Source: a virus (lineage: Duplodnaviria; Heunggongvirae; Uroviricota; Caudoviricetes). From it: DNA of 64,000 bases. The position numbers and the translations under genes were made by a program. The stretch spans positions 1-64,000 of the IMG/VR virus record IMGVR_UViG_3300023371_001771; one strand, 5' to 3'. Positions 467-57,300 of the stretch are shown here, piece after piece (positions within the stretch are counted from its first letter, which is position 1; the number at the start of each line of letters is the position of its first letter). The notes under the pieces are model-generated. The model searched no databases. It was not told the DNA's origin and worked only from the letters and a program-made list of their open reading frames with translations.

Positions 467-1588
467 TCTAATCCTTTCAACCAATTTTGTTATAATGTCT
501 GCTGCGGTGTCAATTTCTTGCTCTGTGTTTTCGCGTCCAAGAGTAATACGAACGCTACTCAGTGCTTCTTTGTTTGACAAACCAATTGCCTTGAGCACAT
601 GAGATGGCGTTGGCTCATACGATTGGCATGCGGATCCTTTGCCGATATATAAATCATATAGCCCACACAGCGTTACCAATCTTTCAGCGTCAACTCCATC
701 AATAGTAAGATTAATGTTATTCGCAAGCCTGCTTGATCCAACTGAGACCCCATTTAAAGTTGTACCTGAAATTTGCAGTAGTTTGTTTAATAGTTTGTCA
801 CGCAAACTTGTAATGCGATCCTGTACGCCAAACATATTATGGTTGCGAGTAATACTTAGCGCCTCGCCCATTCCTGCAATAGCTGCTGTGTCATATGTTC
901 CTCCGCGCAGTTCATTTTCCTGTGATCCATAAATAATTGGTGTCAGTTCAATTCCATTTTTAACGTATAAAAATCCTGCACCACGAGGTCCACAAAACTT
1001 TTGAGCAGATACGGATACCATGTCAACACCAAGTTCTTTTACGTCAATACGCTGCTCTGGGTACAACTGAGTTGCGTCTGTGTGTAAAATGCAATTACAA
1101 TCATGCACAGTTTGCGCAATAGCTTTAAGATCTTGTATTGTGCCAATTTCTCCGTTTGCCGCACCGATAGATACTAGAGATTTATGAGCTGGAAACTTAG
1201 TGAGGCTGCGAGAGTATTTTAGAAATGTTGGTCGAAGTTTTACATAACCTTGCTCATCATTTTCTATAAACATTGCGCGTGGCATTTTATAAATAGATGC
1301 ATGTTCCATACGCGTAGTCCACCAACGAGCACCATTATGTGCTTTGAGATAGCCCTGAATTGCCATACTATTGGATTCGCATGCGCCGCTTGTGAAGATA
1401 ATTTCTGTTGGGTCTGCGTTAATATCTTCTGCAACTTGCACTCTCACACCTTCAATAATTTTCCTAGCGCTATCACCAATTGCATATGGACTTGACGGGT
1501 TGCCCCAACATGTTTTCATAACATGAGCCATAGTAGCAATAACTGACTCATATGGTTTTGTAGTCGCTGCATTGTCAAGATAAATCAA
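455..1588 (-). CDS. cysteine desulfurase, class V aminotransferase (IscS/NifS family)
   Basis: Carries YLDNAATT, SGACESN, HTDATQ and SAQKFCGPRGAGFLY (PLP-lysine region) motifs. A sigma70-like promoter and the conserved leader motif lie upstream. Confidence 0.85.
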   Translation of the reverse strand: MIYLDNAATTKPYESVIATMAHVMKTCWGNPSSPYAIGDSARKIIEGVRVQVAEDINADPTEIIFTSGACESNSMAIQGYLKAHNGARWWTTRMEHASIYKMPRAMFIENDEQGYVKLRPTFLKYSRSLTKFPAHKSLVSIGAANGEIGTIQDLKAIAQTVHDCNCILHTDATQLYPEQRIDVKELGVDMVSVSAQKFCGPRGAGFLYVKNGIELTPIIYGSQENELRGGTYDTAAIAGMGEALSITRNHNMFGVQDRITSLRDKLLNKLLQISGTTLNGVSVGSSRLANNINLTIDGVDAERLVTLCGLYDLYIGKGSACQSYEPTPSHVLKAIGLSNKEALSSVRITLGRENTEQEIDTAADIITKLVERIRHDG

Positions 1589-1603
1589 ACATATTTCCCC
1601 TTT

Positions 1604-1622
1604 CCATTAATTTTGTACTGTT
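1604..1622 (-). promoter_or_regulatory. conserved leader/promoter motif copy (AACAGTACAAAATTAATGG in gene sense)
   Basis: Directly downstream of the sigma70-like promoter 1623-1660 and upstream of the desulfurase gene. Confidence 0.6.
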
Positions 1623-1660
1623 ATTATACCATATATTTGCATTTTGTCAACATAAAAAAA
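1623..1660 (-). promoter_or_regulatory. sigma70-like promoter (TTGACA-N17-TGgTATAAT)
   Basis: Read on the minus strand: ttgacaaaatgcaaatatatggtataat. Confidence 0.6.
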
Positions 1661-1676
1661 TAAAAGGGTGGGAGGA

Positions 1677-2669
1677 TTACTCCTCTCCACCCATTGGAAT
1701 ATCAATAATTGGAAGTGCGCCAGAACCCATCATATAAGTTGGAAGGTTGCCAGTCCAGTTCTGTGCGTACTCATAAGCAACAACTTCGTTTGTGATAGCT
1801 TCTGCAAGAGCCTTAGTAGCTTCCGCTTCCTTTTCGCCCTTGTAAGCAATTGCATCAGCCTCAAGCTGTGCTACTTCAAAGTCGGCCTGAGCCTTAATGC
1901 GAGCGGCTTCAGCTTCTGCGTTTGCGTTAATTTCACGAATTGCAGCATCATTTTCGGCCTGAATCTTAGTGCGCTCAGCAGACTGTCGAGTACGCTCTGT
2001 TTCCATCTGCTGCTGAGTCTTGTCACGAAGAGCTTCCTGCTCGGCCACCTGCTTTGCTTCGATTGCAGCAGTGTAAGCATCAGAGAAATCAAAGTCATCA
2101 ATTACAACAGCGACTTCAATACCATACTTAGACGCGAAAGTAGAAACCGTGGCATCAATGTTACTCTGCAGCTGAGTGCGTAGTTCAGTCATGTTTTCTG
2201 CCTCAACAAGACCAAATTCTGCCTTGATTGCGTTGTTAACCTGCGGCTTAATTAGAATGTTGAAATAATCAATACCAACAGTCTTGTAGATATTAGGCGC
2301 GGAAGATGAAAGCAGATTGTACTTTACAGTGTAAGTGTAAACAACTTCCTGTAGGTCAGAAGAAAAGCACACGTTTCGTTCAGTAAAAATCTGTTCCTTG
2401 TTCGTCATAGTCGTGATATTCTGCCATGGCGCGTGAATGTTCATGCCTTCTGGTAGGTTTCTATCTTCTACGCGACCAAAGGTGGTAAGAATACCAGTAT
2501 GACCAGTAGGCACCGTAGAGATACAAGAACTACCAATAATAACCACCGCAAGAATTACTGCGATTACGCTTGCAATACCACCGATGCGGCTACATTCGAG
2601 CTTGGATGCAACAATGGGGATTACAATTGCGGCGATTAGAAGTAGGATACCGATTACGACACTAAACAT
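1677..2669 (-). CDS. SPFH/band-7 (stomatin/prohibitin/HflK-like) membrane protein
   Basis: N-terminal TM helix, SPFH-like core and a long Ala/Glu/Gln-rich coiled-coil C-terminus. Confidence 0.6.
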   Translation of the reverse strand: MFSVVIGILLLIAAIVIPIVASKLECSRIGGIASVIAVILAVVIIGSSCISTVPTGHTGILTTFGRVEDRNLPEGMNIHAPWQNITTMTNKEQIFTERNVCFSSDLQEVVYTYTVKYNLLSSSAPNIYKTVGIDYFNILIKPQVNNAIKAEFGLVEAENMTELRTQLQSNIDATVSTFASKYGIEVAVVIDDFDFSDAYTAAIEAKQVAEQEALRDKTQQQMETERTRQSAERTKIQAENDAAIREINANAEAEAARIKAQADFEVAQLEADAIAYKGEKEAEATKALAEAITNEVVAYEYAQNWTGNLPTYMMGSGALPIIDIPMGGEE

Positions 2670-2825
2670 AAGGACACCCTTTCTTTTTGTGTTTTATTTT
2701 AAGGCTTGTGCAGTGGCGTCCCACCGTATTAACCTGGGTTGAAAAAACCAATACTCTAAATGTTTCCATCCGTTATTGGTGAAAGTTATACCCCTTTTTC
2801 ACGCACAATTTAATAATACCTTACC

Positions 2826-2899
2826 TGGAGCATCGTACCAGATTCGGACTGGCACTCCAACCTTGGAAGGGTTGTGTGCTACCATTACACCAACGATGC
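2826..2899 (-). tRNA. tRNA-Gly (anticodon UCC)
   Basis: Cloverleaf read on the minus strand: acceptor gcatcgt/acgatgc, anticodon arm caacc-cttccaa-ggttg, CCA encoded. Confidence 0.8.
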
Positions 2900-2960
2900 A
2901 TATTTGCATAAGCTCTAGTTTAAACACCTACACGACGTGAACATACTTATGCTGGTAGGC

Positions 2961-3096
2961 TTGTCCCTCTGGGACTCGAACCCAGACTATGCCTTGCTAG
3001 GGCCTACGGCTTATTGGTGACAGATTGTAGATTTGCACTACAATATCCTAAATGAATCTGCCAAGGCCGTGGCTCTCACCATTGAGCTAAGGGACA
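2961..3096 (-). tRNA. tRNA-like gene interrupted by a ~60-nt insertion in the anticodon region (possible intron; anticodon perhaps UGG/Pro)
   Basis: The 5' half (acceptor tgtccct, U8, D arm gctc-aatggtga-gagc, anticodon 5' stem acggc) lies at 3096-3066. The 3' half (gccgt, T arm ctggg-ttcgagt-cccag, acceptor agggaca) lies at about 3010-2961. They are separated by an insert containing a perfect hairpin, attgtag-tgcaaat-ctacaat. Confidence 0.5.
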
Positions 3097-3630
3097 TTAT
3101 AAAGCGGTTTTTCTTTCGGACATCTCCTATTGAGGTATGGATTACCGAAAACCACTAAGGTAGGCACATGTGCGTCACTTTCCTCAACAAGCTAAAACAC
3201 TTTAAAAGCCTTGGTGGGCAAGGTTGGTGCCGCCCCAACTACTCCCGAAGGAAACGGGTTTACAGCCCGTCGCGTTTGCTGATTCGCTACTTGCCCAAGG
3301 TGTCACGCCATTTTGAGACTAACGTGCTGTCTTGGCTTTTTGTTGTCGTTGTTTCACAGGTGCCATAACCAACGCCTTTCTCATGTTGCCACATATTAAG
3401 CCTGTGTTATTGAGAAATAGTAAGAGTCAATACCAGCTTGGTGCACGTGGAGGGCCACGATCCCTCAATCCCTTACGGGCACTGGTTTTTGAGACCAGCT
3501 TGTATGCCAATTCCAACACACGTGCGCATGCCCAACACTTGTCCATGCACCCACGAAAATTCGCACGTCAGCTGTTGGCACTGAACAGAAACCATTTGAG
3601 CTCAGAGGCCGTTTACTGTCATATTACCTC

Positions 3631-3660
3631 TCTGGTGCTGGATACCAGACTTGAACTGGT
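3631..3660 (-). ncRNA. tRNA-like 3' terminal element (T-arm plus acceptor plus CCA) without a recognisable 5' half
   Basis: The minus strand reads ccag-ttcaagt-ctgg tatccagc a cca. The only upstream acceptor partner is about 130 nt away. It sits inside the 1.3-kb ORF-free stretch. Confidence 0.25.
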
Positions 3661-4418
3661 ACGGTATATTTCAACCAGCGGATTTTTTGTGATAGGCATG
3701 AGTGATGACCTCACTACTGCTCTGGCAACCCACCAAGTCCGCTGTGTCTGCCGATTCCACCAATCCAGCATATCGGGCAGTTTTACATCTTGCCCAGGAT
3801 GCCGATTAAAACTTCGGACCATCCTCCAAGTTGGAATAAGCAAATACAATCATAAGCAATTTCCTCCTTTGGATTATTTACTGCTGCTAACTAGAACGTC
3901 GAAACATAACTCCAATTACGAATAAGGAGCGACCTTTGTCCAGCGGACGCTATGCCCGAAATCCTTACAACCTAACAGTGTGGGAGCGACCTCGGTTAAA
4001 ACTTTTTATTATATTGAGCTTGCTACTTACCAGCCACGGAGACAACCTATGGGCCTTGACCACCAACCCAAACTCTTTATCGTGGATTTGGTAAATCTTT
4101 TGTGGACTACGCATTCTTCTGCGATCTTAGCCCTCTTTACAACCTTAATAAACGACCTTTGATCAAATCAATCTTTGAAGTTTGAACGTTAAATTTTGAA
4201 CCTTGATCCTTAATCTTTACAGCAACACTTATAATATATATCATATATTTTAAATCTTTATCATGCCTAAAAGATTTACAGTATAAGATTCTTGCTTAAC
4301 GGGCAAGTCTTCTATTAATTGAAGATACTTTCTTTAACTTATTAATATCACTCTAAGTATCAAAAAGAAGAGATAAGCAGTCGTTTAAGGTTTCCGATAA
4401 GTAGCAAGCAAGTTTGCC

Positions 4419-5072
4419 TTAGTACTCGAACTCGATAACAGTTACAGCGTTGGAAACACTGAGAGCTGCATCAACTTCAGTTTCAAACTCATTAATCTCG
4501 TCCATGAGATTTTCCATAAGGTTAGTGACGCCAAGCGGGTCAATTAGGTCATAAGTATTGTTCGTAATGTAATCCTTGCGAAGAGCCTTCATTGCATCAC
4601 TATCGATAGCCATCTTAGAATCCTTAGGCTGAGCCTGGATTACAGACAGCACATACTGTTCAGCTCGCTTTTCAATGGCTTCGCCACTATTACGATCAAG
4701 CTCAACATATGCTGCGCGATAGTTGTCTACAATGCGCTGACGAAGAATCTTCTTGTATTCCATGCCGTGATTCTTCTCTTCGATAGCCTCAGCGACCGTC
4801 ATTTCCTTTTCGCCAACTACAACCTTGGTGGTTGCATTGGAAATCACAACAGCTCGCTTCATTGCGTCACGACGCGCAATTAGAGACTGAACCTTCTGGT
4901 AAGCACTCTTGATGTTTTCCTTGAACTCGGCCACGGTAACTCCGTTAACCTTTTCTGCTGAGTGCTTAACTGCCATCGCGTAAGGATGTGCGTTAATTGC
5001 CTTTAGGATGCGATCATCCATAGTCTTGAGTTCTGCAAGTGCCTTGTGAACCGTCATCTTTTCCTGAGTCAT
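4419..5072 (-). CDS. hypothetical protein
   Basis: ORF trimmed to the ATG (MTQEKM) preceded by AGGGGG. Sigma70-like promoter and leader motif lie upstream. Confidence 0.55.
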   Translation of the reverse strand: MTQEKMTVHKALAELKTMDDRILKAINAHPYAMAVKHSAEKVNGVTVAEFKENIKSAYQKVQSLIARRDAMKRAVVISNATTKVVVGEKEMTVAEAIEEKNHGMEYKKILRQRIVDNYRAAYVELDRNSGEAIEKRAEQYVLSVIQAQPKDSKMAIDSDAMKALRKDYITNNTYDLIDPLGVTNLMENLMDEINEFETEVDAALSVSNAVTVIEFEY

Positions 5073-5100
5073 TTTCTTGTACCCCCTAATAAGCTTTGAA

Positions 5101-5119
5101 TCATTAATTTTGTACTGTT
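5101..5119 (-). promoter_or_regulatory. conserved leader motif copy
   Basis: cagtacaaaattaatga on the minus strand, between promoter 5137-5165 and the RBS. Confidence 0.55.
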
Positions 5120-5136
5120 TCCCTTGAACTGGAATT

Positions 5137-5165
5137 AGTATATCACACATTCCATATTCTGTCAA
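5137..5165 (-). promoter_or_regulatory. sigma70-like promoter (TTGACA-N17-TATACT)
   Basis: Minus strand: ttgacagaatatggaatgtgtgatatact. Confidence 0.55.
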
Positions 5166-5189
5166 TAGAGTTTTTAAATCTTAACAAAA

Positions 5190-5266
5190 TGGCGTCCCAG
5201 GAGAGATTCGAACTCCCGACACACGGCTTAGAAGGCCGTTGCTCTATCCTACTGAGCTACTGGGAC
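5190..5266 (-). tRNA. tRNA-Arg (anticodon UCU)
   Basis: Acceptor gtcccag/ctgggac, anticodon arm acggc-cttctaa-gccgt, T loop ttcgaat, CCA encoded. Confidence 0.8.
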
Positions 5267-5515
5267 ATAATATGGTAGGGTATCTCCAACCTACCGCGAA
5301 CTACTAACAACATCACTTGCGTTTATTCTTTAGCAAGCATCCAATCAAGGCTGTGATGAACCCTGCTTGCCGCCGAAGACTAACTTGAATTATAAAGCCT
5401 AATAGTTTGTGGACTTGAACCACACAGCGCTCTTCCACTGGCCATCCTGCAACGTACCATATAACTTTTCGAGCAGTTTCTTCTCAACTGGTTTAACGTG
5501 CGAAGTCAGCACGGC

Positions 5516-5591
5516 TGGTGGAGATGATGGGACTCAAACCCACGACTTTTACCTTGCAAGGGTAACACTCTATCAACTGAGTTACATCCCC
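5516..5591 (-). tRNA. tRNA-Ala (anticodon UGC)
   Basis: Acceptor ggggatg with the G3:U70 Ala identity pair, anticodon arm ttacc-cttgcaa-ggtaa, CCA encoded. Confidence 0.85.
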
Positions 5592-6007
5592 ATAAAATGT
5601 GTATACCAGTTTTGATTGGGACGAAGACTGGAAACTTCTTTTCTCTCGACTCGCTCCGTAGAGTCGGCTTAACCGACGTACTATTCTGTCTCGCATACAC
5701 TTTCTGAGACTTGTGAAGAGAGCATTCACAATAGCGACCTAAGCCTTTTTGCCGTTAGAAAGCATTATCTTGTCGCCTGGATAGGTGGACTTTTGGAACG
5801 TGCACCACCATACACTCCGTCCTATATCTAACTGGACATTTCGCTTTTCTTTCAGATAAAAATCTTAGCTGCTTTGTGGTTTTGCGATAACCCATAGTGT
5901 TCTCCATCAAGTACCGCATGGCAGCACGGGATTGACTTCACAGAACGAGCCTAATCTCAAGTATTAGGCAAAACACGTGTATGATATTCTAAGTGTCATA
6001 CCCGCTG

Positions 6008-6098
6008 TGGCGGAGATGGTGAGCTTTGAACTCACGCGCCAATTTCTTGACCTAATCGGTTAGCAACCGATCCCCTTCAACCGCTTGGGTACATCTCC
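6008..6098 (-). tRNA. tRNA-Ser (anticodon GCU), class II
   Basis: Long variable arm, anticodon arm atcgg-ttgctaa-ccgat, acceptor ggagatg/catctcc, CCA encoded. Confidence 0.8.
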
Positions 6099-6101
6099 AT
6101 G

Positions 6102-6192
6102 TGGCGACTGGTTTCGGACTTGAACCGAAACACCCTTTCGGGTTACTGGCAGATTTCGAATCTGCTGCCTTACCAATTAGGCTTAACCAGCC
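6102..6192 (-). tRNA. tRNA-Ser (anticodon CGA), class II
   Basis: Long variable arm, anticodon arm gcaga-ttcgaaa-tctgc, T arm ttcgg-ttcaagt-ccgaa, CCA encoded. Confidence 0.75.
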
Positions 6193-6202
6193 GCATGATT
6201 GA

Positions 6203-6325
6203 TTACTTCTGCTCCAGCTGTCTAATCTGACGCTTTAGCTTATTAATGATGTTTGCGTTGCCAACAGGATCTCTCTGCTGTAGAAGGTTAATACGTGCCT
6301 GAAGTCGTTCAACAGTCTTAGTCAT
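6203..6325 (-). CDS. small hypothetical protein (40 aa) inside the tRNA cluster
   Basis: ATG preceded by aatGGAGGtataaaatc, and a variant leader motif (ttaattaataatggagg) lies upstream. Predicted coiled-coil peptide MTKTVERLQARINLLQQRD... Confidence 0.35.
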   Translation of the reverse strand: MTKTVERLQARINLLQQRDPVGNANIINKLKRQIRQLEQK

Positions 6326-6434
6326 GATTTTATACCTCCATTATTAATTAAATATGGTAGCAGTGTTTTTAGTCCATATTAAACTAGGCACCCACCTCTG
6401 TGGATCCCGCCAGGATTGAACTGACATCTCTGCT

Positions 6435-6510
6435 TGGAGCCGAGTATCGGACTTGAACCGATAGCCTGCTGATTACAAATCAGCTGCTCTGCCAATTGAG
6501 CTAACTCGGC
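6435..6510 (-). tRNA. tRNA-Thr (anticodon UGU)
   Basis: Acceptor gccgagt/actcggc, anticodon arm gctga-tttgtaa-tcagc, CCA encoded. Confidence 0.8.
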
Positions 6511-6811
6511 ATAAAATAGTCTAAGACTCTTCCGTCCTGTCAAGGATAGGTCATCGCTTGTTTCTAGCCAAACCAAGAATCAATTAACTCGAAAACGCTT
6601 TTACATTCTTAGACTATATGGCTGGGAACCAGGGTAACGCTCCCCGTCTTCATGGGTCAAAGCCATGCGTACCAACTTTTATACGAGTTCCCATCATTGA
6701 CCCAACTTTCTGCTCCTTGTATGCTTGCATCAGAGGCCAGGACGCTCTCTCCGTATTGGGTCGGAGTACGTATATTTCACTACTCACGTGTCTGTTCGCG
6801 AAACAGCATGT

Positions 6812-6886
6812 TGGCGGTCACGGTGTGACTCGAACACACAACCTAGCGGTTAACAGCCGCTTGCTCCACCATTGAGCTACGTGACC
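6812..6886 (-). tRNA. tRNA-Asn (anticodon GUU)
   Basis: Acceptor ggtcacg/cgtgacc, anticodon arm agcgg-ctgttaa-ccgct, CCA encoded. Confidence 0.8.
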
Positions 6887-7057
6887 ATATGGTGTCTCTA
6901 CAGGCGGGGCCAGTGCAGCGACCCTATATGAGGGCTTTCCACGAACTACTTTTGCAACATTTTGTATGTCTGTTAATCTTACTGCCGTCAGCTAATTGGC
7001 AGTCGTTGCTATCCTTGTTCCGTACTAACACCTATACATTGCACTACCTGTAGAGAG

Positions 7058-7133
7058 TGGTGGGTGATTGGAGAATCGAACTCCAGACGCCATGATTAAA
7101 AGTCATGTGCTCTACCAACTGAGCTAATCACCC
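7058..7133 (-). tRNA. tRNA-Lys (anticodon UUU)
   Basis: Acceptor gggtgat/atcaccc, anticodon arm catga-cttttaa-tcatg, CCA encoded. Confidence 0.8.
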
Positions 7134-22632: not shown

Positions 22633-22959
22633 TCACAAATTCTTGCAAGCATCAATGATTGCCTGTGCATTGTTAATCTGCGGCTGAAGATTTGCCTTTG
22701 CAGCTTCCTCAGTGAGCCACATCTCTCCACTAAGATATGTCTTCAGGTAAAATGCTTTTTCATTGGCAATACACTTTATCCTGCTGAGTTCTCTTACTTT
22801 TTCTCTAAGGGTATTATTAACGTCTGCCAACATTTCGCTAAGCTGTAATGCTGAAATATCGTCATAGCATACATAAAGATATCGCTTTAGAATATCTTCA
22901 ATCGAATTCAGGCTATCGTTTCCATTCAGCATGCCCAGCAGTCTTTCTCTGTCTGTCAT
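22633..22959 (-). CDS. hypothetical protein
   Basis: ORF in the array. Confidence 0.45.
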   Translation of the reverse strand: MTDRERLLGMLNGNDSLNSIEDILKRYLYVCYDDISALQLSEMLADVNNTLREKVRELSRIKCIANEKAFYLKTYLSGEMWLTEEAAKANLQPQINNAQAIIDACKNL

Positions 22960-23229
22960 ACTTTCACCTCATCAAATCGTCATTTTATTTCCTTTTCTAC
23001 ATCAATTACAACAGTTACTTTTGAACCCACCTTTATATGCTTACCAATAAATCCATTTAAGCAAACTACTGAATATCCATACTCGTCATCTTGCGTATCA
23101 ATATAGACATTATTTTCTGCTTTCCAGTATGTTCCTTCAAATACATATCTCATATTATCACCTCATAAAATTATCCTTTCAAGTCGTTATTATTTCATAT
23201 ACACTCATGAATTCCGTAAGCTCTCTTTA

Positions 23230-23553
23230 ACAGATTCATGTTTGAGCTGCATTGAACCTGGGAATGATCTCAGAACCGGGTGATAACCGGGTGACGAGAT
23301 CAGCGCCCAGGTGTTTGTGCAGCTCGGCTGAATTGAATTCCCTTGTGTATATTGGCGCTTATACCAAATTAAAATGCACTCTGTATTTCCGTAGATATTT
23401 CTTTACAAGTTCCATATTCGGATCAATCTGAGAAAGTTACCAGCAAGGAAGCCGGGTAGATAAACCGGCTGTAATGCTGGTAAATTGAGCTTGAGGATTG
23501 ATCGGAGTTAAATTGAAACACCTTATGCATTCGCAGTATCTATCTGCGTTATG
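23230..23553. repeat. tandem ~170-bp units (2 copies): conserved ~90-bp module plus unit-specific long hairpin (array A)
   Basis: Hairpins at 23244-23325 (nested: gagctgca/tgcagctc, cctggg/cccagg, gatctc/gagatc) and 23440-23480. Flanking modules share tGAATTGAATc ... cTTGTa ... tttcAT motifs with array B. Confidence 0.6.
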
Positions 23554-24486
23554 TTAATAGCCCTTTACTCCAAGCTCATGCATTCTATTAGCATAGTTGA
23601 AATTATTGTCCTTAATTACCTTCTTCATCAGCGCAAACATTCTCCAACCTTCTCCCCTATATTCGTTAAGCTTGTATTTAAGCTCCTGCATAGACCCATA
23701 ATTGGTAAGCGTTCCATTGTTATCTTTAATTACACAGTCGTGATACATTACCAGATTCTTAAGCGTATAATAAGCACCTTCTCCCTTGAAAGCATCAACC
23801 CATGCCTTGCTTTTGCGAGTTTCATAAGGAAGCTTAATCATGTCCTTCATAAAGTCCTTAAGATAACCATACAGTGAAGCGTAACTAACTGCATACTTAA
23901 GATACACAATCTTACTCATCAGCGGACGATACAGTTTCTTGTTCAAATCCTCTACAAAGATGTCAATTCCATTTACTCTCTTGTAAGGAACTCCCTTGCA
24001 CTTCTTAGTAGGAAGCTTATCAACATAATCCTTGAGTTTTTCCACATAATCACATGCCACATCAATAACAACTTCCTTGGTGAAGAAGTGGCTTCTTTCA
24101 TCAAAGCTTTCCTTGTCGCTGATTTCAAGGCAGCTAAGCACTCTTACTTCTTCGAGCATCATATCGAAAGTGTACTGATAGCCGTACATTCTATGAAGGT
24201 AATCAGTGTAGCCCTCATGCATTCCATCATAGGACTTCCAATTCAACATCTGGAACATCTGAGCCATTACGAACCTTCTGTGAAGCTTGGTGTTCCTTAC
24301 ATATCCATTGGCGATAATCTGTTCTACAATGGGATCGGGTTCTTTGCCATTAACCACCACAGGCTGTCCATTTTCATCAATAATCAGATGAATCTTGGTT
24401 CCATTGTCAAGGTCCACAGTGAAGTACTTGCTGGTGTTGATGCCTGCCTGGTTCAATTTTTCCATTCTTTCTTTCTTGTTCAACAT
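23554..24486 (-). CDS. hypothetical protein
   Basis: 310-aa ORF lying between the two hairpin arrays. Confidence 0.5.
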   Translation of the reverse strand: MLNKKERMEKLNQAGINTSKYFTVDLDNGTKIHLIIDENGQPVVVNGKEPDPIVEQIIANGYVRNTKLHRRFVMAQMFQMLNWKSYDGMHEGYTDYLHRMYGYQYTFDMMLEEVRVLSCLEISDKESFDERSHFFTKEVVIDVACDYVEKLKDYVDKLPTKKCKGVPYKRVNGIDIFVEDLNKKLYRPLMSKIVYLKYAVSYASLYGYLKDFMKDMIKLPYETRKSKAWVDAFKGEGAYYTLKNLVMYHDCVIKDNNGTLTNYGSMQELKYKLNEYRGEGWRMFALMKKVIKDNNFNYANRMHELGVKGY

Positions 24487-24506
24487 AATATCATTCTCCT
24501 TATCTT

Positions 24507-24974
24507 TTAATTATTTTCAATCCACTTTCTTAGAATTACTAGATCTTTATCATTCTTTGACTGGTAAAACCACTTACCCATAGTCTTTTCATCCCACACA
24601 AAGCTGCCTTCAAGCGCAATGCATAGGATAAATCCTTCAAGCCGTGCTTTTGTAATCTCCCTCCTGTTCGCCAAAAATAATCTTTCATCAGGAATCTCTT
24701 CAATTGGCAGCGCTTTGAAGTATGTTCGTCTCTTATTATCACTCCTTTCACTTGGTAGAGAATACTTATATCTGTCATATAATACATCAATCGTTCCAAG
24801 AACAAGTTCCATCGTTGTAGGATCTCCTTTACGATTAAACAAATTCCTTGAAGTATCATATTCTCCGTTCTTAATCAGATAATCATTGCCGACTTTCATT
24901 GTTCGCTTCTCAAAGTCAATATGGAACGTCTCTCCGTTTTCAACTCTTAAAAGCAGCTCTTCATAAATTGTCAT
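24507..24974 (-). CDS. hypothetical protein
   Basis: ORF trimmed to ATG after AAGGAGG. Hairpin unit H1 lies immediately upstream. Confidence 0.5.
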   Translation of the reverse strand: MTIYEELLLRVENGETFHIDFEKRTMKVGNDYLIKNGEYDTSRNLFNRKGDPTTMELVLGTIDVLYDRYKYSLPSERSDNKRRTYFKALPIEEIPDERLFLANRREITKARLEGFILCIALEGSFVWDEKTMGKWFYQSKNDKDLVILRKWIENN

Positions 24975-25028
24975 TGTCTTACCTCCTTTTTGATAGATGC
25001 TCAACAGTTTTGGTATATATCTTTAGAA

Positions 25029-25712
25029 GTCTCATATATCCTGAAGCGAGGCTCGTATTGGAGGCAGCCCCTGAAAGATAATTCGGCTGGCAGCCTCCTA
25101 ATGCGAGACGTTATAGCTTCAGGAAATTGAATCAACTGCCTTGCTATCTACTGCTATACTGCATAGATTACTCATAATACTGGTGTGTTCCTTTACCTGT
25201 TTCATGTTTGACTGCGCATGCCAGATTTAAGGCCATGATGGCAGGATGATAACCCTGCGATCTGGCCTGTGATCTGGGTTAATGAGCAGTCGTCTGAATT
25301 CTATTACCTTGTAATCCATCGTCACACTACGAATTAAATTACTCAACAACATTGGTGCATTTCTCTAGTTGTTTCATATAAGAGGCAAATGCCTGCGTGA
25401 GAGACGGGATAATTCTGAGGTCTCAGTGTGTTATCCCGTTGGGCACGCAGGTCTACTTGCCTTCTATTGAATCTAGTTGTCTTGTAATTCACTGTTGCAC
25501 TACATCATTACTCATAGCCATTGTGCGTTTCTTTAACTGTCTCATATTGGGGAATTATTTCAGCGACCTGGCATGGGAGCTGGAGCAATTTGAAACTTGC
25601 GTGCGCCTTCAAAGTGATAGCGACTAGGCGCAGCCAGTTTCAATGCGTAATAATTCCCCAGTTGAATCTCGGCTACATTGTAATTTGCTTTTGTCGCACT
25701 CCAAAATGTCAA
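25029..25712. repeat. tandem array of four ~170-bp units: conserved ~90-bp module plus unit-specific long imperfect hairpin (array B), immediately downstream of the RT gene
   Basis: Unit starts at about 25029, 25199, 25366 and 25540. Hairpins at 25040-25123 (27-bp arms that are near-identical inverted copies with 3 mismatches), around 25211-25290, 25392-25451 (nested cctgcgtg/cacgcagg) and 25589-25644. Conserved module reads ...tGAATTGAATC...cTTGTAAT...ATTACTCAtAA..cattgGTG..tTTCTcTAactGTtTCATaT. Confidence 0.7.
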
Positions 25713-26972
25713 TCACATGCTTCTCACCAAAGTGTCATAAACTGCTCTGTTTGTGAGGATTGCATTCTGCATGCAGCGGATTGACAGATAACCGTCAATT
25801 TCCTTGTCGGTTTTATTTCTGTTCGCCGCTACATTTTTGCCCGTCCCTCTTAAGATGGTGTAATCTTCTTTATCACTTACACTACCAAGACCTCCAATCT
25901 TTTTCTTATTTGTTGCACAGGCTCTAATGCAATCCATTACGAACTGATTCAAAATGTCAATATCTTTTTGTACATTAATGATGGGAAGCACTGAAGTTGC
26001 CCACGAATACTTGCCATCTCCTTTATACAAATAAGATTGAACTTGATTGAGCGCTCGCTTCATGGAAATATTGCGCTGCTTGATTGTCCGAGATTCAATC
26101 TCTTTTTGAAAACTCTTTACGCGAGACTTGGCAAGTGTAATTTGATTTCCTTTGATATAGAAACCAAGGAACTTAAACCACCTGTCTTTCGTAAGAATCT
26201 CAACTTTCTTTGGATTCAATTCGAGTTCCATTTCATCAAGCATTCTCTTAATGGCTGCGTATGCTTGCTCCCACTCATTTCCTAGTGCCAACAAATCATC
26301 TGAATATCTAACATAGTAAACATTCATATCACTTATTGCCTTGTCAATGGGATACAACACTGCATCAGCCAAGAAGCTTGCCACAGCGCAACCTTGTTTC
26401 AAAGACTGATAATGTTCAATCAGTTCTCCATTGAAGTCAAAGCACAAATCTGCATGATAGTATTTCCTTACAACATCAATGATCTTTGACTTACCAACTT
26501 TCGATTCCATTCTGTCAAAGATGTCATCAATGTATCTGATAGGAACCCTATCAAAATACTTGGTCAGGTCTGCTTTCAGTCCAACCTCGCGAGTCTTTGT
26601 ATTAATCACCTGCCTTGATACTTCCTGTACAATCTTGCCGCAACCAATGCCGCTTTGGTATGATTTGCAACTCTTATGAACGAACTCAGGAAACATCTCA
26701 AAGAACAAATTGTTTGCAATGGATAAGAAGATTCGGTCTACATTTTCATTAACGTAAACAATTCTCATATCTCCATTGTCTTTAGGAATCTGTGCTTGGT
26801 GCGGCGGAGCGATTTCGTAATTATCAGTGATAATTGCATTGTACAGCGCAAGTCTAACTTCTGGAGATGTAAGTTTTCTTAATTCTCCCTTGTCGATGTG
26901 CTTGTCGACACCAACTTCAAGTGCCTGCTCCCAGCGTTCAGTTTCAAAAAACTTCTTCAACAAAATGTCCAA
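25713..26972 (-). CDS. reverse transcriptase (prokaryotic RT, unclassified lineage)
   Basis: RT motifs IPKDNGDMRIV (1), LKADLTKYFDRVP (3), QGCAVASFLADAVL (4), YVRYSDDLLAL (5, YxDD), LNPKK (6), FKFLGFYI (7). No maturase X domain and no obvious VTG motif. Confidence 0.8.
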   Translation of the reverse strand: MDILLKKFFETERWEQALEVGVDKHIDKGELRKLTSPEVRLALYNAIITDNYEIAPPHQAQIPKDNGDMRIVYVNENVDRIFLSIANNLFFEMFPEFVHKSCKSYQSGIGCGKIVQEVSRQVINTKTREVGLKADLTKYFDRVPIRYIDDIFDRMESKVGKSKIIDVVRKYYHADLCFDFNGELIEHYQSLKQGCAVASFLADAVLYPIDKAISDMNVYYVRYSDDLLALGNEWEQAYAAIKRMLDEMELELNPKKVEILTKDRWFKFLGFYIKGNQITLAKSRVKSFQKEIESRTIKQRNISMKRALNQVQSYLYKGDGKYSWATSVLPIINVQKDIDILNQFVMDCIRACATNKKKIGGLGSVSDKEDYTILRGTGKNVAANRNKTDKEIDGYLSIRCMQNAILTNRAVYDTLVRSM

Positions 26973-26984
26973 ATTTTCACCTCC

Positions 26985-27004
26985 CGTATTAATTTTGTGT
27001 TGTT
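26985..27004 (-). promoter_or_regulatory. conserved leader motif copy immediately upstream of the RT gene
   Basis: aacaacacaaaattaatacgggaggtg on the minus strand, then the RT ATG. Confidence 0.55.
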
Positions 27005-27007
27005 ACT

Positions 27008-27568
27008 TTAATACCATTCGTGATAGAACAGTGCTTCTTCGTCAGTCGGGTCTTCTTCGGAAACATGCTCATCAAATTCCGTGTTCATTTCCGCAATCCG
27101 TTCTGCGTCAAGGATGTAATAACCACAATTGTCTACATCTTCGAGGTTGTCATAGAACCACTGCTGCAGTTCATAATGCTTGCGCCAGTACGCTTCCTCT
27201 TCTTCATACCAGATGTAAGTAGGAACAGATCTGGTAATTGTATATTTCTCTTCAATTTCCTCTCTAGAAATGAACTGGCCTACATATTCGTCATTGTCAT
27301 TTCTTCCAGAGATACGTATTCCTTCATAAGAATACATTCCAATGCGTGAATTTTTCGGCAGCTTGTAATCTTCAATCATCTTTTCTTTGTTGTAATATTC
27401 TGTAAGTACATTTCTTACAACAGTATATGGAATAAGCTGTTCAAAATTCTCTTCTACTTCTTCAACAGCAACCATTGCATAACCCATGTTACTAATTTCT
27501 TCTACAGTGTACACCTTATCTTCAAGATCAGGTTTTCTTACACGTCTAACCCACATATCGAGTCCCAT
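27008..27568 (-). CDS. hypothetical Glu-rich acidic protein
   Basis: ORF upstream of the RT. The leader motif lies at 26985-27004 between them. Confidence 0.45.
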   Translation of the reverse strand: MGLDMWVRRVRKPDLEDKVYTVEEISNMGYAMVAVEEVEENFEQLIPYTVVRNVLTEYYNKEKMIEDYKLPKNSRIGMYSYEGIRISGRNDNDEYVGQFISREEIEEKYTITRSVPTYIWYEEEEAYWRKHYELQQWFYDNLEDVDNCGYYILDAERIAEMNTEFDEHVSEEDPTDEEALFYHEWY

Positions 27569-27585: not shown

Positions 27586-28529
27586 TTACACAGCAATCTT
27601 TTTATTTACCATGTTGTTAAACTGGTCAAAGATTGCATGTCCATCCATGATTTTGCTCCAGCGGTTTTCTTGATACGTTGCGGTGTTGCGTCGAGGTGCT
27701 GCGTGGGTAATAACATCACTCATTGCGTTAACTGCCTTCCATGCGCTGTCTTCAAACTTTGCAATATCTGGCATGTTGTATGCAGTCCAGTAGTTATTCT
27801 TAAACTGCTGTACATTGTTCTTTTTCTTCTGGCTTGCATCTTCCTTTACAGGGAACATTTCATCAAGAATCTGCTCAATCTGTTCACGATAAAGCTTTGC
27901 GTTTGCAAGTCGGTCTGCCTCTTCATCAAGATTTACCATATAATCGTTAGCCAACTGCAAACACAATTTCGCTTCTTCAAGCTTAGACTGCATATCGCCA
28001 ACGTGCTTAGTGCTCCACTGACGCTTTGCACCATTAAGTGCCATACTTAAAGTGTTCTGACAAACCACTCGAATAGGAGTCATGGCAATTCTGATTGCGC
28101 CTGTGCCATCATGAGAATTTGTAAACACCATAAAAGGATCTACATCATCATCAAGCACCTTCTTTGTAGGCATCTTTGCGAGCAGCCAAATTCTCTTGCC
28201 TCCTGCGAGAGAGCCTGCGGTTTCATAGGTTACAACTCCGTCTTCCGTTTCACCAACAATTTCATCAGTAAACTCAAACGCTTCAACGTCTGTACAATCT
28301 TATAGCGGTCGCTTACAATACCAAGAATCGTGCCATCAGTGTCACGTCTGTTTGCCTTATATCCAGGAATCTCAATGCCAGAATCAGTGAACACAGGAGT
28401 CTGTTCTACGCGCCAATCAAGTCCAGCAAAATGCAATGCGTCTTCGCTCGTCGGTGCCTTTTCAACATTCACACCCAGTCCATGCCACGGTACCTGTCTT
28501 ACATAAAACATAGATTCAACATTATGCAT
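27586..28529 (-). pseudogene. frame-split gene (two ORFs, 28529-28230 and 28173-27586) encoding one ~320-aa protein if a -1 frame change occurs near 28190-28225
   Basis: The upstream ORF ends ...GIVSDRYKIVQ. The -1 frame continues without a stop as DVEAFEFTDEIVGETEDGVVTYETAGSLAGGKRIWLLAK-MPTKK.... No canonical slippery heptamer is seen. Confidence 0.45.
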
Positions 28530-29112
28530 TTTCCTTTTCTCCTTTTTCTTTATAGTAATTACTTACAGTTTCTTTCCACGATTTACCAGACAAAATGCCA
28601 TTTACCAACCCTCTGCTTAGACCGAGCATCTTGGCAATTTTCCTACATCCAAAGCCTGTATCATCTCTTATCTTCAAGATTGTACATACTATATCGCTTG
28701 TGATTATTGCATTATAGTGCTGCTCTTCTCTTGGTGCATATGTTGCTACATCCGCTGGATGTCTTAGCCCATTATCAAGCGCATGCTGATTGTTTTCAGA
28801 TGGCGTCACATATTCAAGATTTTCAATTTTATTGTTATGCTTATTACCATCTTTATGATTAACAACATATCCTTCTGGACACTTGCCAAGAAATGCTTCT
28901 GCAACCGCTCTATGCACACGAATATTTATCACTTGATATTTCTGTGGCCTTGCTTGTAATGTCATATATCCATTTTTATTTTCGAATTGCTTTAATGTAC
29001 GCTTAGTGATTGCATTTCTGAATCTTCCGAAGTTGCTTGCTTCGTACATATTGTTCAGTGACGGAATTGGTTTCCATATTTCATTGCATAGATTTTCATC
29101 ATTAGCTGCCAT
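28522..29112 (-). CDS. HNH homing endonuclease (NUMOD4 N-terminus, HNH_3 core, C-terminal HTH)
   Basis: EIWKPIPSLNNMYEASNFGRFRN (NUMOD4-like), VNHKDGNKHNNKIENLEYVTPSEN (HNH) and IAKMLGLSRGLVNGI (HTH). Confidence 0.8.
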   Translation of the reverse strand: MAANDENLCNEIWKPIPSLNNMYEASNFGRFRNAITKRTLKQFENKNGYMTLQARPQKYQVINIRVHRAVAEAFLGKCPEGYVVNHKDGNKHNNKIENLEYVTPSENNQHALDNGLRHPADVATYAPREEQHYNAIITSDIVCTILKIRDDTGFGCRKIAKMLGLSRGLVNGILSGKSWKETVSNYYKEKGEKENA

Positions 29113-55655: not shown

Positions 55656-55982
55656 TTGGAAGGAGCAAAAAAAGATATGGAAAGGGTAATGAAAAAACCA
55701 GAGCTTGCGCGTGAATTGGCGCAACGCACAGGGTTTTATATAAAAAATATGGAAGCCGTCTTAGACGCGCTTGATGATATTATCGTTGACAACATGAGTA
55801 TGGCCACAAAAGACGAGCCGTCAGAAATCCGTCTTTCTCTTGGGTTTATACTTGGCGGAAGATATTCTCCTAAGCATGAGGTTAGGGATCCACGCACAGG
55901 TGAAAGTGTAATGACTCCTGCAAAATATATTCCTTATGCTAAGTTTAGTCCAGCATTTAGAAAGAAAATTAACAAGAAGTGA
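55656..55982 (+). CDS. HU/IHF-family DNA-binding protein
   Basis: ELARELAQRTGFYIKNMEAVLDAL ... RDPRTGESVMTPAKYIPYAKFSPAFRKKIN matches the HU fold signature (RxPxTGE..I.P....P.FK.GK.L). Confidence 0.7.
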   Translation: MEGAKKDMERVMKKPELARELAQRTGFYIKNMEAVLDALDDIIVDNMSMATKDEPSEIRLSLGFILGGRYSPKHEVRDPRTGESVMTPAKYIPYAKFSPAFRKKINKK

Positions 55983-57190
55983 TGGTGACGGCAATGAATG
56001 ATAATTTGAAAAGACTGCCTCAGGAGACAGATGATCAGTATTTTTATCGTGTGTGTCAAATGAAGGACAGTCTTGGTTTTACATGGCCACAAATGGCAGA
56101 GATTTTTAATAATGAATTTGGTCGTAACATTGGTGATTCGGCGTATCGCAAAAAGTGGGCCGCATTTAGAGGTGTATTTAATGCTAATACTGACAAGCTT
56201 GTCGGCGAGAATACATATTTAAATGAGCTGAAAGAGCAGACCGACGAGCTGTACAAAGCAAAAAGGCAGCTCTACGATCAGAGACGTGAGTATAATAAGA
56301 TGCTTGTTAGTGACGCGAGAGCCGATCATTTGGTTGAAATGCTAATTGAAGCGGCAAACATCGCGCCGCTAGAAAATTACTCAAACATTTTTGTGTGTGA
56401 CTCAAATTCATCCACAAAAGAAGCGGTTTTGCTACTTTCAGACTGGCATTACGGACAGATTTCAGATAATATTTGGAATAAGTATAATACTGAAATTTGT
56501 GAAGATCGCGCTGGCAGATTATTTAAAAAAGTTTATAGCGCATTAAAAGATCATTGTGTTAGAAAAGTGCATATTGTACTGTTGGGAGATTTGATTAATG
56601 GCGCAATTCATAATACTTGCCGTGTTGCCTCTGAGGAAAATACTTGTGAGCAACTAATGCATGTTTCAGAGCTGATTGCGAATTTTATTAATGCTGTATC
56701 TAGATGCACATCAGAAGTATATGTGTATTCTACTTATGGCAATCACGCACGTACTATTCAAAATAAAGAAGATAGTATTCATGCGGACAACATGGAACGA
56801 GTTATTCCATGGTGGCTGAAGCAGAGACTTAAGGACAATAATAAGGTTACTGTAGTTGACAGTGAATATCATGAATTTATTTATGTTGATGTGTGTGGGC
56901 ATCATGTTGTTTGTACACATGGTGACTTAGATAAGTTTAAAGACATTGGTATTACCATTAACAGCCTGTTTTCCAAGAAGTATGGAAAGACTATTGAGTA
57001 CACATTCTCTGGAGACAAGCATCATTTAGAGTCTTTTGAGCAGTTTGGTATTGAATCTGCGCTTGTCGGTTCTTTGTGTGGCACTGATGAATATGCCAAT
57101 AATAAGCGATTGTATTCTAATCCTATGCAGACACTGTGCATTTTTACTCCAGAAGATGGTAAATTATGCTCTTATAATATAAAATTATAA
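55982..57190 (+). CDS. metallophosphoesterase (calcineurin-like; possible SbcD/Mre11-type nuclease or phosphatase)
   Basis: MPP motifs SDWHYG (DxH), LLGDLINGAIH (GDxxD), GNHA (GNH[DE]), and a later THGD. Confidence 0.55.
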   Translation: MVTAMNDNLKRLPQETDDQYFYRVCQMKDSLGFTWPQMAEIFNNEFGRNIGDSAYRKKWAAFRGVFNANTDKLVGENTYLNELKEQTDELYKAKRQLYDQRREYNKMLVSDARADHLVEMLIEAANIAPLENYSNIFVCDSNSSTKEAVLLLSDWHYGQISDNIWNKYNTEICEDRAGRLFKKVYSALKDHCVRKVHIVLLGDLINGAIHNTCRVASEENTCEQLMHVSELIANFINAVSRCTSEVYVYSTYGNHARTIQNKEDSIHADNMERVIPWWLKQRLKDNNKVTVVDSEYHEFIYVDVCGHHVVCTHGDLDKFKDIGITINSLFSKKYGKTIEYTFSGDKHHLESFEQFGIESALVGSLCGTDEYANNKRLYSNPMQTLCIFTPEDGKLCSYNIKL

Positions 57191-57207: not shown

Positions 57208-57300
57208 TTGGGCTGGTGTATTGTACACCCTGGTCCACCTAGCGACGGGGAATTTCCCCGTCATTTTTAATATACAAAGAATAAAGGAGAACAAATAATT

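Follow-up and report, generated by a model that had tools for sequence, protein, structure and literature searches.

We identify, in a 64,000-nucleotide (nt) stretch of phage DNA (positions 1 to 64,000 of IMG/VR record IMGVR_UViG_3300023371_001771; the whole stretch is hereafter called the window), what is very probably a UG27 reverse transcriptase (RT) operon with six structured noncoding RNA (ncRNA) units, each likely copied into a short single-stranded DNA (ssDNA) hairpin. The order on the minus strand, which carries every gene of this region, is RT, four ncRNA units, a small accessory gene, a large accessory gene and two further units (Table 1). The locus is a member of an already described system and not a new kind: every testable architectural feature of UG27 is present, with AUG in place of the published AUC as the sole deviation. 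A first-pass annotation of this DNA had noticed an RT gene at 25713-26972 (-) followed by four tandem units, two genes and two more units, and this layout is borne out by our covariance model and motif scan. The same annotation could match the arrangement to no RT-associated system; the RT, its neighbor genes, the phage location and the ncRNA had, however, been described in 2022, and the tandem array, including extra units, in 2026. The two genes that it took to be merely intervening would, from their profile matches, encode the accessory proteins of the system, RTas346 and RTas337.

UG27 RT systems are present in thousands of gut phages and would convert arrayed RNA modules into sets of small DNA hairpins. 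The family was defined by Mestre et al. 2022 (PMC9226505), who placed it in phages of gut Bacteroidetes and Firmicutes, accompanied by protein clusters 346 and 337; the same study reported that UG27 is not enriched in defense islands and predicted a structured ncRNA in its intergenic region. The main text of a 2026 preprint (bioRxiv 10.64898/2026.09.22.753630) describes a 'variable ncRNA array' with units of mostly 149 or 167 nt, each with a basal hairpin, a pseudoknot and an asymmetric internal loop in which UUYA and AUCNNNNNNNUANAG flank a sequence-diverse central hairpin; some loci have extra units in adjoining intergenic regions, and close relatives differ by one or two units. According to the same text, five UG27 systems in Escherichia coli gave RT-dependent ssDNAs of 50-100 nt that map to the central hairpins, with synthesis starting at AUC, ending after UUYA and needing both accessory genes; these complementary DNAs (cDNAs) had no complementarity to phage or host genomes, and the authors give their role as unknown.

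Proteins of the operon

We placed the RT by hidden Markov model (HMM) searches, and it matched the PADLOC profile RT_UG27 end to end (E 2.7e-204; residues 2-419 on a 420-position profile). The next-best PADLOC matches were UG26 (2.9e-37), UG17 (2.9e-26) and Drt9 (4.1e-23), the best retron RT profile reached only 7.4e-12, and Pfam RVT_1 was matched at E 8e-21. The catalytic YSDD is found in the translation in the context VRYSDDLLALG, and the gene opens with a TTG start codon preceded by the ribosome-binding site GGGAGGTG. Judged by these matches and by those of the accessory genes to the RTas346 (cluster 346) and RTas337 (cluster 337) profiles, the three products are the proteins of a UG27 system. 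A Pfam search of both accessory proteins returned no known domain (such as Avd or Cas). We also predicted the structures of both by modeling; the large protein (pLDDT 79) resembles only generic helical bundles, and neither predicted fold reveals a catalytic role.

The small accessory gene has an ATG at 24974 with AAAGGAGG upstream as its ribosome-binding site, and the 3' end of unit 4 lies just ahead of that site. The open reading frame (ORF) called mechanically runs on (24975-25004, -) to a TTG within ncRNA unit 4, and the true start is most likely the ATG after AAAGGAGG. Small ORFs of 41-50 amino acids (for example, 25560-25712) were also called within the arrays; they share sequence with ncRNA units and are, most likely, spurious calls.

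Architecture of the RNA units

Minimum-energy folds of the individual units recovered a unit-closing stem and a central hairpin, and subsequent hand parsing gave one layout that fits all six units (a unit being taken to start with its 5' pseudoknot arm and to finish with the last strand of its basal stem, P1a'). From 5' to 3', a unit is made up of a 5-nt pseudoknot arm, a linker, P1a, AAG, P1b, (A)GA-UUYA and the central hairpin P2, followed by AU-AUG-N7-UANAG-RAA, the second pseudoknot arm, P1b', GA and P1a'. The two-part basal stem (P1a, P1b) closes an asymmetric internal loop in each unit; UUYA on its 5' strand (UUCA in five units, UUUA in unit 5) and AUG-N7-UANAG on its 3' strand flank the central hairpin in all six, and the hairpin that rises from the loop is long, imperfect and unit-specific in sequence. 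The pseudoknot consists of 5 base pairs between the segment immediately upstream of the basal stem and the 3' strand of the internal loop. Differences between units in the basal stems and the pseudoknot are compensatory: P1a is AUUAC/GUAAU in units 1-3, AUGCA/UGCAU in unit 5 and UAUACAC/GUGUAUA in unit 6, and the pseudoknots of units 1 to 6 are GUGCG/CGCAC, GUGCA/UGCAC, GUGUG/CACAC, GUAUA/UAUAC, AGAUA/UAUCU and UAAGC/GCUUA.

All six central hairpins are far more stable than their shuffled counterparts (z from -4.4 to -8.7, with 0 of 200 shuffles as good). The motif AT[GC]N7TANAG has 13 minus-strand matches in the window, six of which are the units, about 170 nt apart. A search of 22900-27100 against Rfam, at gathering thresholds and at E values up to 10, returned no family.

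This layout revises several details of the first-pass annotation. Its figure of approximately 170 bp stands as the repeat spacing, but the register is shifted: the functional unit is centered on the hairpin and closed by the basal stem, and the conserved 90-bp module that had been counted as part of one unit therefore straddles a boundary, running from the 3' scaffold of one unit into the 5' scaffold of its neighbor. The hairpins, given there as 84, about 80, 60, about 56, 82 and 41 nt, measure 84, 83, 83, 114, 84 and 87 nt in the same order (units 4, 3, 2, 1, 6 and 5). The arms of the hairpin at 25040-25123 had been called near-identical with three mismatches; when they are aligned, complementarity extends to only 29 of 47 positions, and the minimum-energy fold pairs 60 of the 84 nt.

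Table 1. Components of the UG27 operon, with positions in the window; cDNA templates are predictions, bit scores are from covariance model R2 and z scores refer to the hairpin
Feature	Position	Strand	Length	Central hairpin	Predicted cDNA template	Evidence
UG27 reverse transcriptase	25713..26972	-	419 aa			PADLOC RT_UG27, Pfam RVT_1, YSDD active-site motif
ncRNA unit 1	25507..25699	-	193 nt	25548-25661 (114 nt)	25543-25666	83 bits; z -5.97
ncRNA unit 2	25338..25500	-	163 nt	25382-25464 (83 nt)	25375-25471	92.4 bits; z -8.65
ncRNA unit 3	25167..25327	-	161 nt	25210-25292 (83 nt)	25203-25298	99.8 bits; z -7.55
ncRNA unit 4	24993..25159	-	167 nt	25040-25123 (84 nt)	25033-25131	82.2 bits; z -4.39
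Small accessory protein (sORF, RTas346, cluster 346)	24507..24974	-	155 aa			PADLOC RTas346, E 1.3e-54
Large accessory protein (bORF, RTas337, cluster 337)	23554..24486	-	310 aa			PADLOC RTas337, E 8.4e-110
ncRNA unit 5	23374..23541	-	168 nt	23419-23505 (87 nt)	23413-23512	72.6 bits; z -7.77
ncRNA unit 6	23198..23361	-	164 nt	23243-23326 (84 nt)	23237-23332	76.3 bits; z -7.44

Covariation and conservation in relatives

A search with the RT found 25 IMG/VR phage loci (52-92% identity), five bacterial or metagenome-assembled genome (MAG) contigs and the cultured Bacteroides phage BS-TP1 (58%). The covariance model applied to them, R2, is a full-length model with the hairpin interior masked with N, built on a hand-registered seed of the six units. 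Two simpler approaches were discarded: MAFFT followed by RNAalifold on the six units gave zero consensus pairs, because the variable hairpins wreck a sequence-only alignment, and a condensed covariance model with the hairpin interior removed (R1) failed to span real units and mis-assigned their 5' half. Run on the window with filters off, R2 returned exactly the six units (72-100 bits), and the next match scored 16.9 bits.

The first-pass annotation had proposed looking for units beside this RT clade with a model built from the six, and the co-occurrence is there: R2 found 116 further units, spread over 21 of the 25 related IMG/VR loci and each 3' of the RT in the same orientation, as well as units beside the RT homologs in the bacterial and MAG contigs and in BS-TP1. 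Locus L016 has one unit; L022 gives two weak R2 matches with filters off and seven AUC-type sites in the motif scan; and the sequence of L025 stops at the RT. RT and array are kept together in relatives down to an RT identity of approximately 55%.

We counted covariation over 88 distinct units. Overall, 91.6% of pair cells are paired, compared with 56.7% in shuffles and 31-38% when the partners are slid, and double changes occur at 27 of the 28 pairs; within the basal stem, pairing reaches 94.0% of cells in P1a and 98.6% in P1b, with compensatory changes at 11 of the 12 pairs. The pseudoknot offers the cleanest test of structure because it is not part of the model: left out of R2, it nevertheless pairs in 95.5% of cells (56.3% in shuffles, none of 500 of which is as high, and 12-45% when slid), with three to four pair types, related by compensatory changes, at each of its five positions. 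At one P1b position the most frequent pair is G-U (51 of 88 units), and this points to RNA from the RT-sense strand as the functional molecule. We set aside a possible UUCA/UGAA helix at the base of the hairpin; 97% of units could form it, but the count is uninformative because both of its sides are nearly invariant. The published RNA model, including its pseudoknot, receives independent support from a separately built model and from different loci.

Proposed mechanism and product

On the present sequences we established the families of the proteins, the layout of the RNA units with its covariation, the strand, and that RT and array occur together in relatives; that cDNA is made, where its synthesis starts and stops, and that both accessory proteins are needed are projected on to this locus by homology, from the experiments on five other UG27 systems. 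The minus-strand transcript would fold into six self-contained modules. A complex of the RT with the small and large accessory proteins would start DNA synthesis at AUG, on the 3' side of the hairpin, copy the central hairpin and stop just past UUYA, and each unit would yield one short plus-strand ssDNA hairpin (predicted lengths 124, 97, 96, 99, 100 and 96 nt for units 1 to 6), giving six different hairpins. The predicted cDNAs fold as ssDNA hairpins (z from -5.6 to -7.5). A family of RT templates, or a cDNA-producing module, was among the roles suggested by the first-pass annotation, and both fit the assignment of the locus to UG27 by RT profile and RNA architecture. For the priming of synthesis, protein priming as in DRT10 (UG17), a characterized class-2 relative reported to be protein-primed, may serve as a lead, not as a test. 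Our best guess as to function, offered with low confidence, is that proteins recognize the DNA hairpins by their shape and tip loop and not by base-pairing to a target, and that the hairpins have a role in phage-host conflict. Compared by BLAST with all other sequence of the window, the six hairpins gave matches of at most 13 nt (best E 0.06).

Several points weigh against this account. The synthesis of cDNA is predicted here by homology to systems whose closeness to this RT is uncertain. All six units, and the arrays of close relatives scanned by motif, have AUG and not the published AUC, and the exact start nucleotide is an assumption because of this replacement. The assays reported in the main text of bioRxiv 10.64898/2026.09.22.753630 used heterologous T7 expression in E. 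coli and not infection. The predicted products, at 96-124 nt, reach or exceed the upper limit of the 50-100 nt that was reported. Finally, the pair counts for P1 and P2 lean towards structure because the R2 seed was hand-built from the six window units, a bias that the pseudoknot count does not share.

Alternative explanations

Two other accounts accept that the RT and its array belong together. The RNAs might themselves be the functional molecules (for example, as protein sponges or scaffolds), with the cDNA a by-product of over-expression in E. coli; we regard this as improbable. It is consistent with the strong structural selection on the RNA scaffold, with cDNA evidence that comes from heterologous T7 expression only, and with the absence of phage or host complementarity in the published cDNAs and of longer matches for the window hairpins elsewhere in the window. 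However, the RT retains its catalytic YSDD and stays with the array over the whole span of identities given above, the conserved motifs coincide exactly with the published start and stop points of the cDNA, and the near-fixed hairpin length and conserved tip (described below) fit selection on a defined product. A multi-copy retron-like element, in which each unit is an msr/msd pair giving branched RNA-DNA primed from the 2'-OH of a conserved guanosine, is in our estimate very improbable. The logic is similar, in that an RT stands beside a structured ncRNA with a hairpin that is copied into ssDNA, the closing stem joins the template ends much as a1/a2 do, and the main text of the preprint does not state the priming chemistry of UG27; but the RT is far closer to the UG27 profile than to the best retron profile, the ncRNA lies downstream of the RT and is repeated, its motifs and pseudoknot are unlike msr/msd, two accessory proteins of unknown fold are needed, and the region has no Rfam family match.

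The remaining account dispenses with the RT link altogether and would make this ordinary operon regulation, the conserved modules being promoters and the hairpins terminators or attenuators, as the first-pass annotation had itself considered when naming what would count against its proposal. The units do lie in intergenic DNA between co-oriented genes, and a few sigma-70-like matches fall inside them, yet promoter-like sites (14 observed, 15.7 expected from shuffles) and terminator-like sites (3 observed, 3.0 expected) occur at shuffle level, and no terminator-like site is on the gene strand. No run of T or A longer than 4 is found in the arrays, and because of this and the chance-level site counts the earlier statement that the hairpins are not terminators holds. 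Nor would such elements need a covarying basal stem and a pseudoknot around each hairpin. The units, moreover, number from one to eight beside the same three genes. Contradicted by site counts, T runs, covariation and copy number alike, the regulatory account was rejected, and we give it next to no credence. A UG27 operon whose RNA units serve as templates for short ssDNA hairpins remains the account that we prefer.

Comparison with other systems

The locus shares with published UG27 systems the RT family, both accessory families, carriage by a large gut phage and tandem units of approximately 165 nt; the basal stem, the internal loop with UUYA and N7-UANAG, the pseudoknot and the diverse central hairpin; and the extra units in an adjoining intergenic region and the variation of unit number among close relatives. 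It differs in its AUG for the published AUC and in a UAUC hairpin tip, and in that it is known from sequence alone. Retrons likewise use an RT to make short, abundant ssDNA from a hairpin-forming stretch of a structured ncRNA encoded next to it. Their RT clade is different, however, and they have a single msr/msd flanked by a1/a2, normally upstream of the RT, whereas six units lie downstream here; UG27 also has the pseudoknot, UUYA, UANAG and two required accessory proteins, is phage-borne and is not enriched in defense islands. The class-2 UG/DRT RTs (DRT2/UG2, DRT9/UG28 and DRT10/UG17) belong to the same RT superfamily and have a dedicated ncRNA beside the RT, but they are reported to produce, from one ncRNA, long DNA that is concatemeric, homopolymeric or a tandem repeat, and to act in bacterial defense, whereas UG27 would make short discrete hairpins from many units, in phages.

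Arrays of clustered regularly interspaced short palindromic repeats (CRISPR) and diversity-generating retroelements (DGRs) also alternate conserved and variable segments beside an RT (some CRISPR loci have RTs). The first-pass annotation had judged the array to be neither, correctly. The conserved parts here are only about 70-86% alike and are halves of an RNA scaffold, and the would-be spacers are self-complementary hairpins; as for a DGR, no template/variable repeat (TR/VR) pair was found, the longest direct repeat family (42 nt, 76% identity) lying inside the array. A group II intron was likewise rejected, Rfam having no match in 22900-27100 at E values up to 10.

Features of the clade

To the published description we add three details of this clade: AUG where synthesis would start, a hairpin tip that is conserved, and conservation of the split array. 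AUG occupies the published AUC position, and N7-UANAG is present, in all six window units. The motif scan finds AUG also in the arrays of relatives with 60-92% RT identity; AUC is found in L019, L020, L022 and BS-TP1 (55-58%). We read AUG as a clade variant of the AUCNNNNNNNUANAG motif.

The hairpins of the clade are mostly 84-90 nt long. UAUC is present in 71 of 85 distinct clade hairpins where approximately 30 would be expected, although relatedness between units inflates such counts, and in 62 hairpins it overlaps the terminal loop, about 42-45 nt in. It is found at the P2 apices in the window (for example, 25243-25252 and 23279-23288), the predicted DNA hairpins having GATA(A) tips in five of the six units, and is irregular in the more distant AUC clade. 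The main text of bioRxiv 10.64898/2026.09.22.753630 does not mention this tip (its figures may show it). A tentative reading, which we think possible but rather doubtful, is that the hairpins of the clade are less free-form than 'variable' implies, with a ruler-like length of approximately 84-90 nt and a UAUC tip that is conserved. If these features and the position-specific pseudoknots described below are functional, the RT complex would recognize the tip and gauge the hairpin's length, and the DNA would act through a shared loop on different stems, as a protein ligand or decoy and not as a guide.

The split array is conserved in the clade, the order being RT, one to six units (eight in one MAG contig), small gene, large gene and, mostly, two to three more units. 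The units after the genes usually have AGAUA-type and then UAAGC-type pseudoknots, and array positions keep their own pseudoknot sequence across phages. L001, the closest relative (92% RT identity), has the long-hairpin unit and its neighbor in reversed order (25338-25699 in the window, 5270-5644 in L001), which suggests rearrangement or independent gain and loss of whole units. Orthologous hairpins of the two loci are 59-83% identical; their changes either preserve the stems by compensation or replace inner segments outright.

BS-TP1 (L026, PQ571274.1), a cultured phage of Bacteroides salyersiae BG8, has a complete UG27 system at 1535-6091. Its RT (gp79) is labeled 'tail protein' in GenBank; the unannotated 1.35-kb gap that follows gp79 contains at least seven AUC-type ncRNA units; and gp80 and gp82 are the small and large accessory proteins, with an extra gene, gp81, between them. 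The window itself brings the function of the hairpins no closer, but BS-TP1 could, being a culturable carrier in which the role of the cDNA is testable in a real infection.

Phage context

The window is phage DNA, and the UG27 system is carried by a large gut phage: window genes encode a DnaB-like helicase, a Sak4-like protein, an exonuclease, a large terminase and a portal protein, and identical accessory proteins were found on metagenomic contigs of up to 171,629 bp. Related contigs fall in bins named Faecalimonas, Prevotella and Eubacteriales; we do not trust these names as host calls because the binned contigs look like whole phage contigs.

Elsewhere in the window, 11 tRNA genes are clustered at 2826-7133 (-), with a drum RNA (RF02958, 68.6 bits) embedded at 5837-5946. 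An Rfam tRNA-like match of 136 nt at 2961-3096, for which ARAGORN makes no call, may be a tRNA with a long insertion or intron. A DUF3800-XI RNA motif (RF02975, 46.1 bits) at 57209-57259 (+) lies directly 3' of the exonuclease gene (55979-57190) and precedes the gene that stands upstream of the terminase. The DUF932 gene appears to be split (27586-29112, -): the ORF at 27586-28173 covers only profile positions 59-220, a separate ORF of 99 amino acids at 28230-28529 resembles the DUF932 amino terminus, and an HNH_3/NUMOD4 homing endonuclease (28522-29112) lies immediately upstream, an arrangement that suggests a frameshift or interruption.

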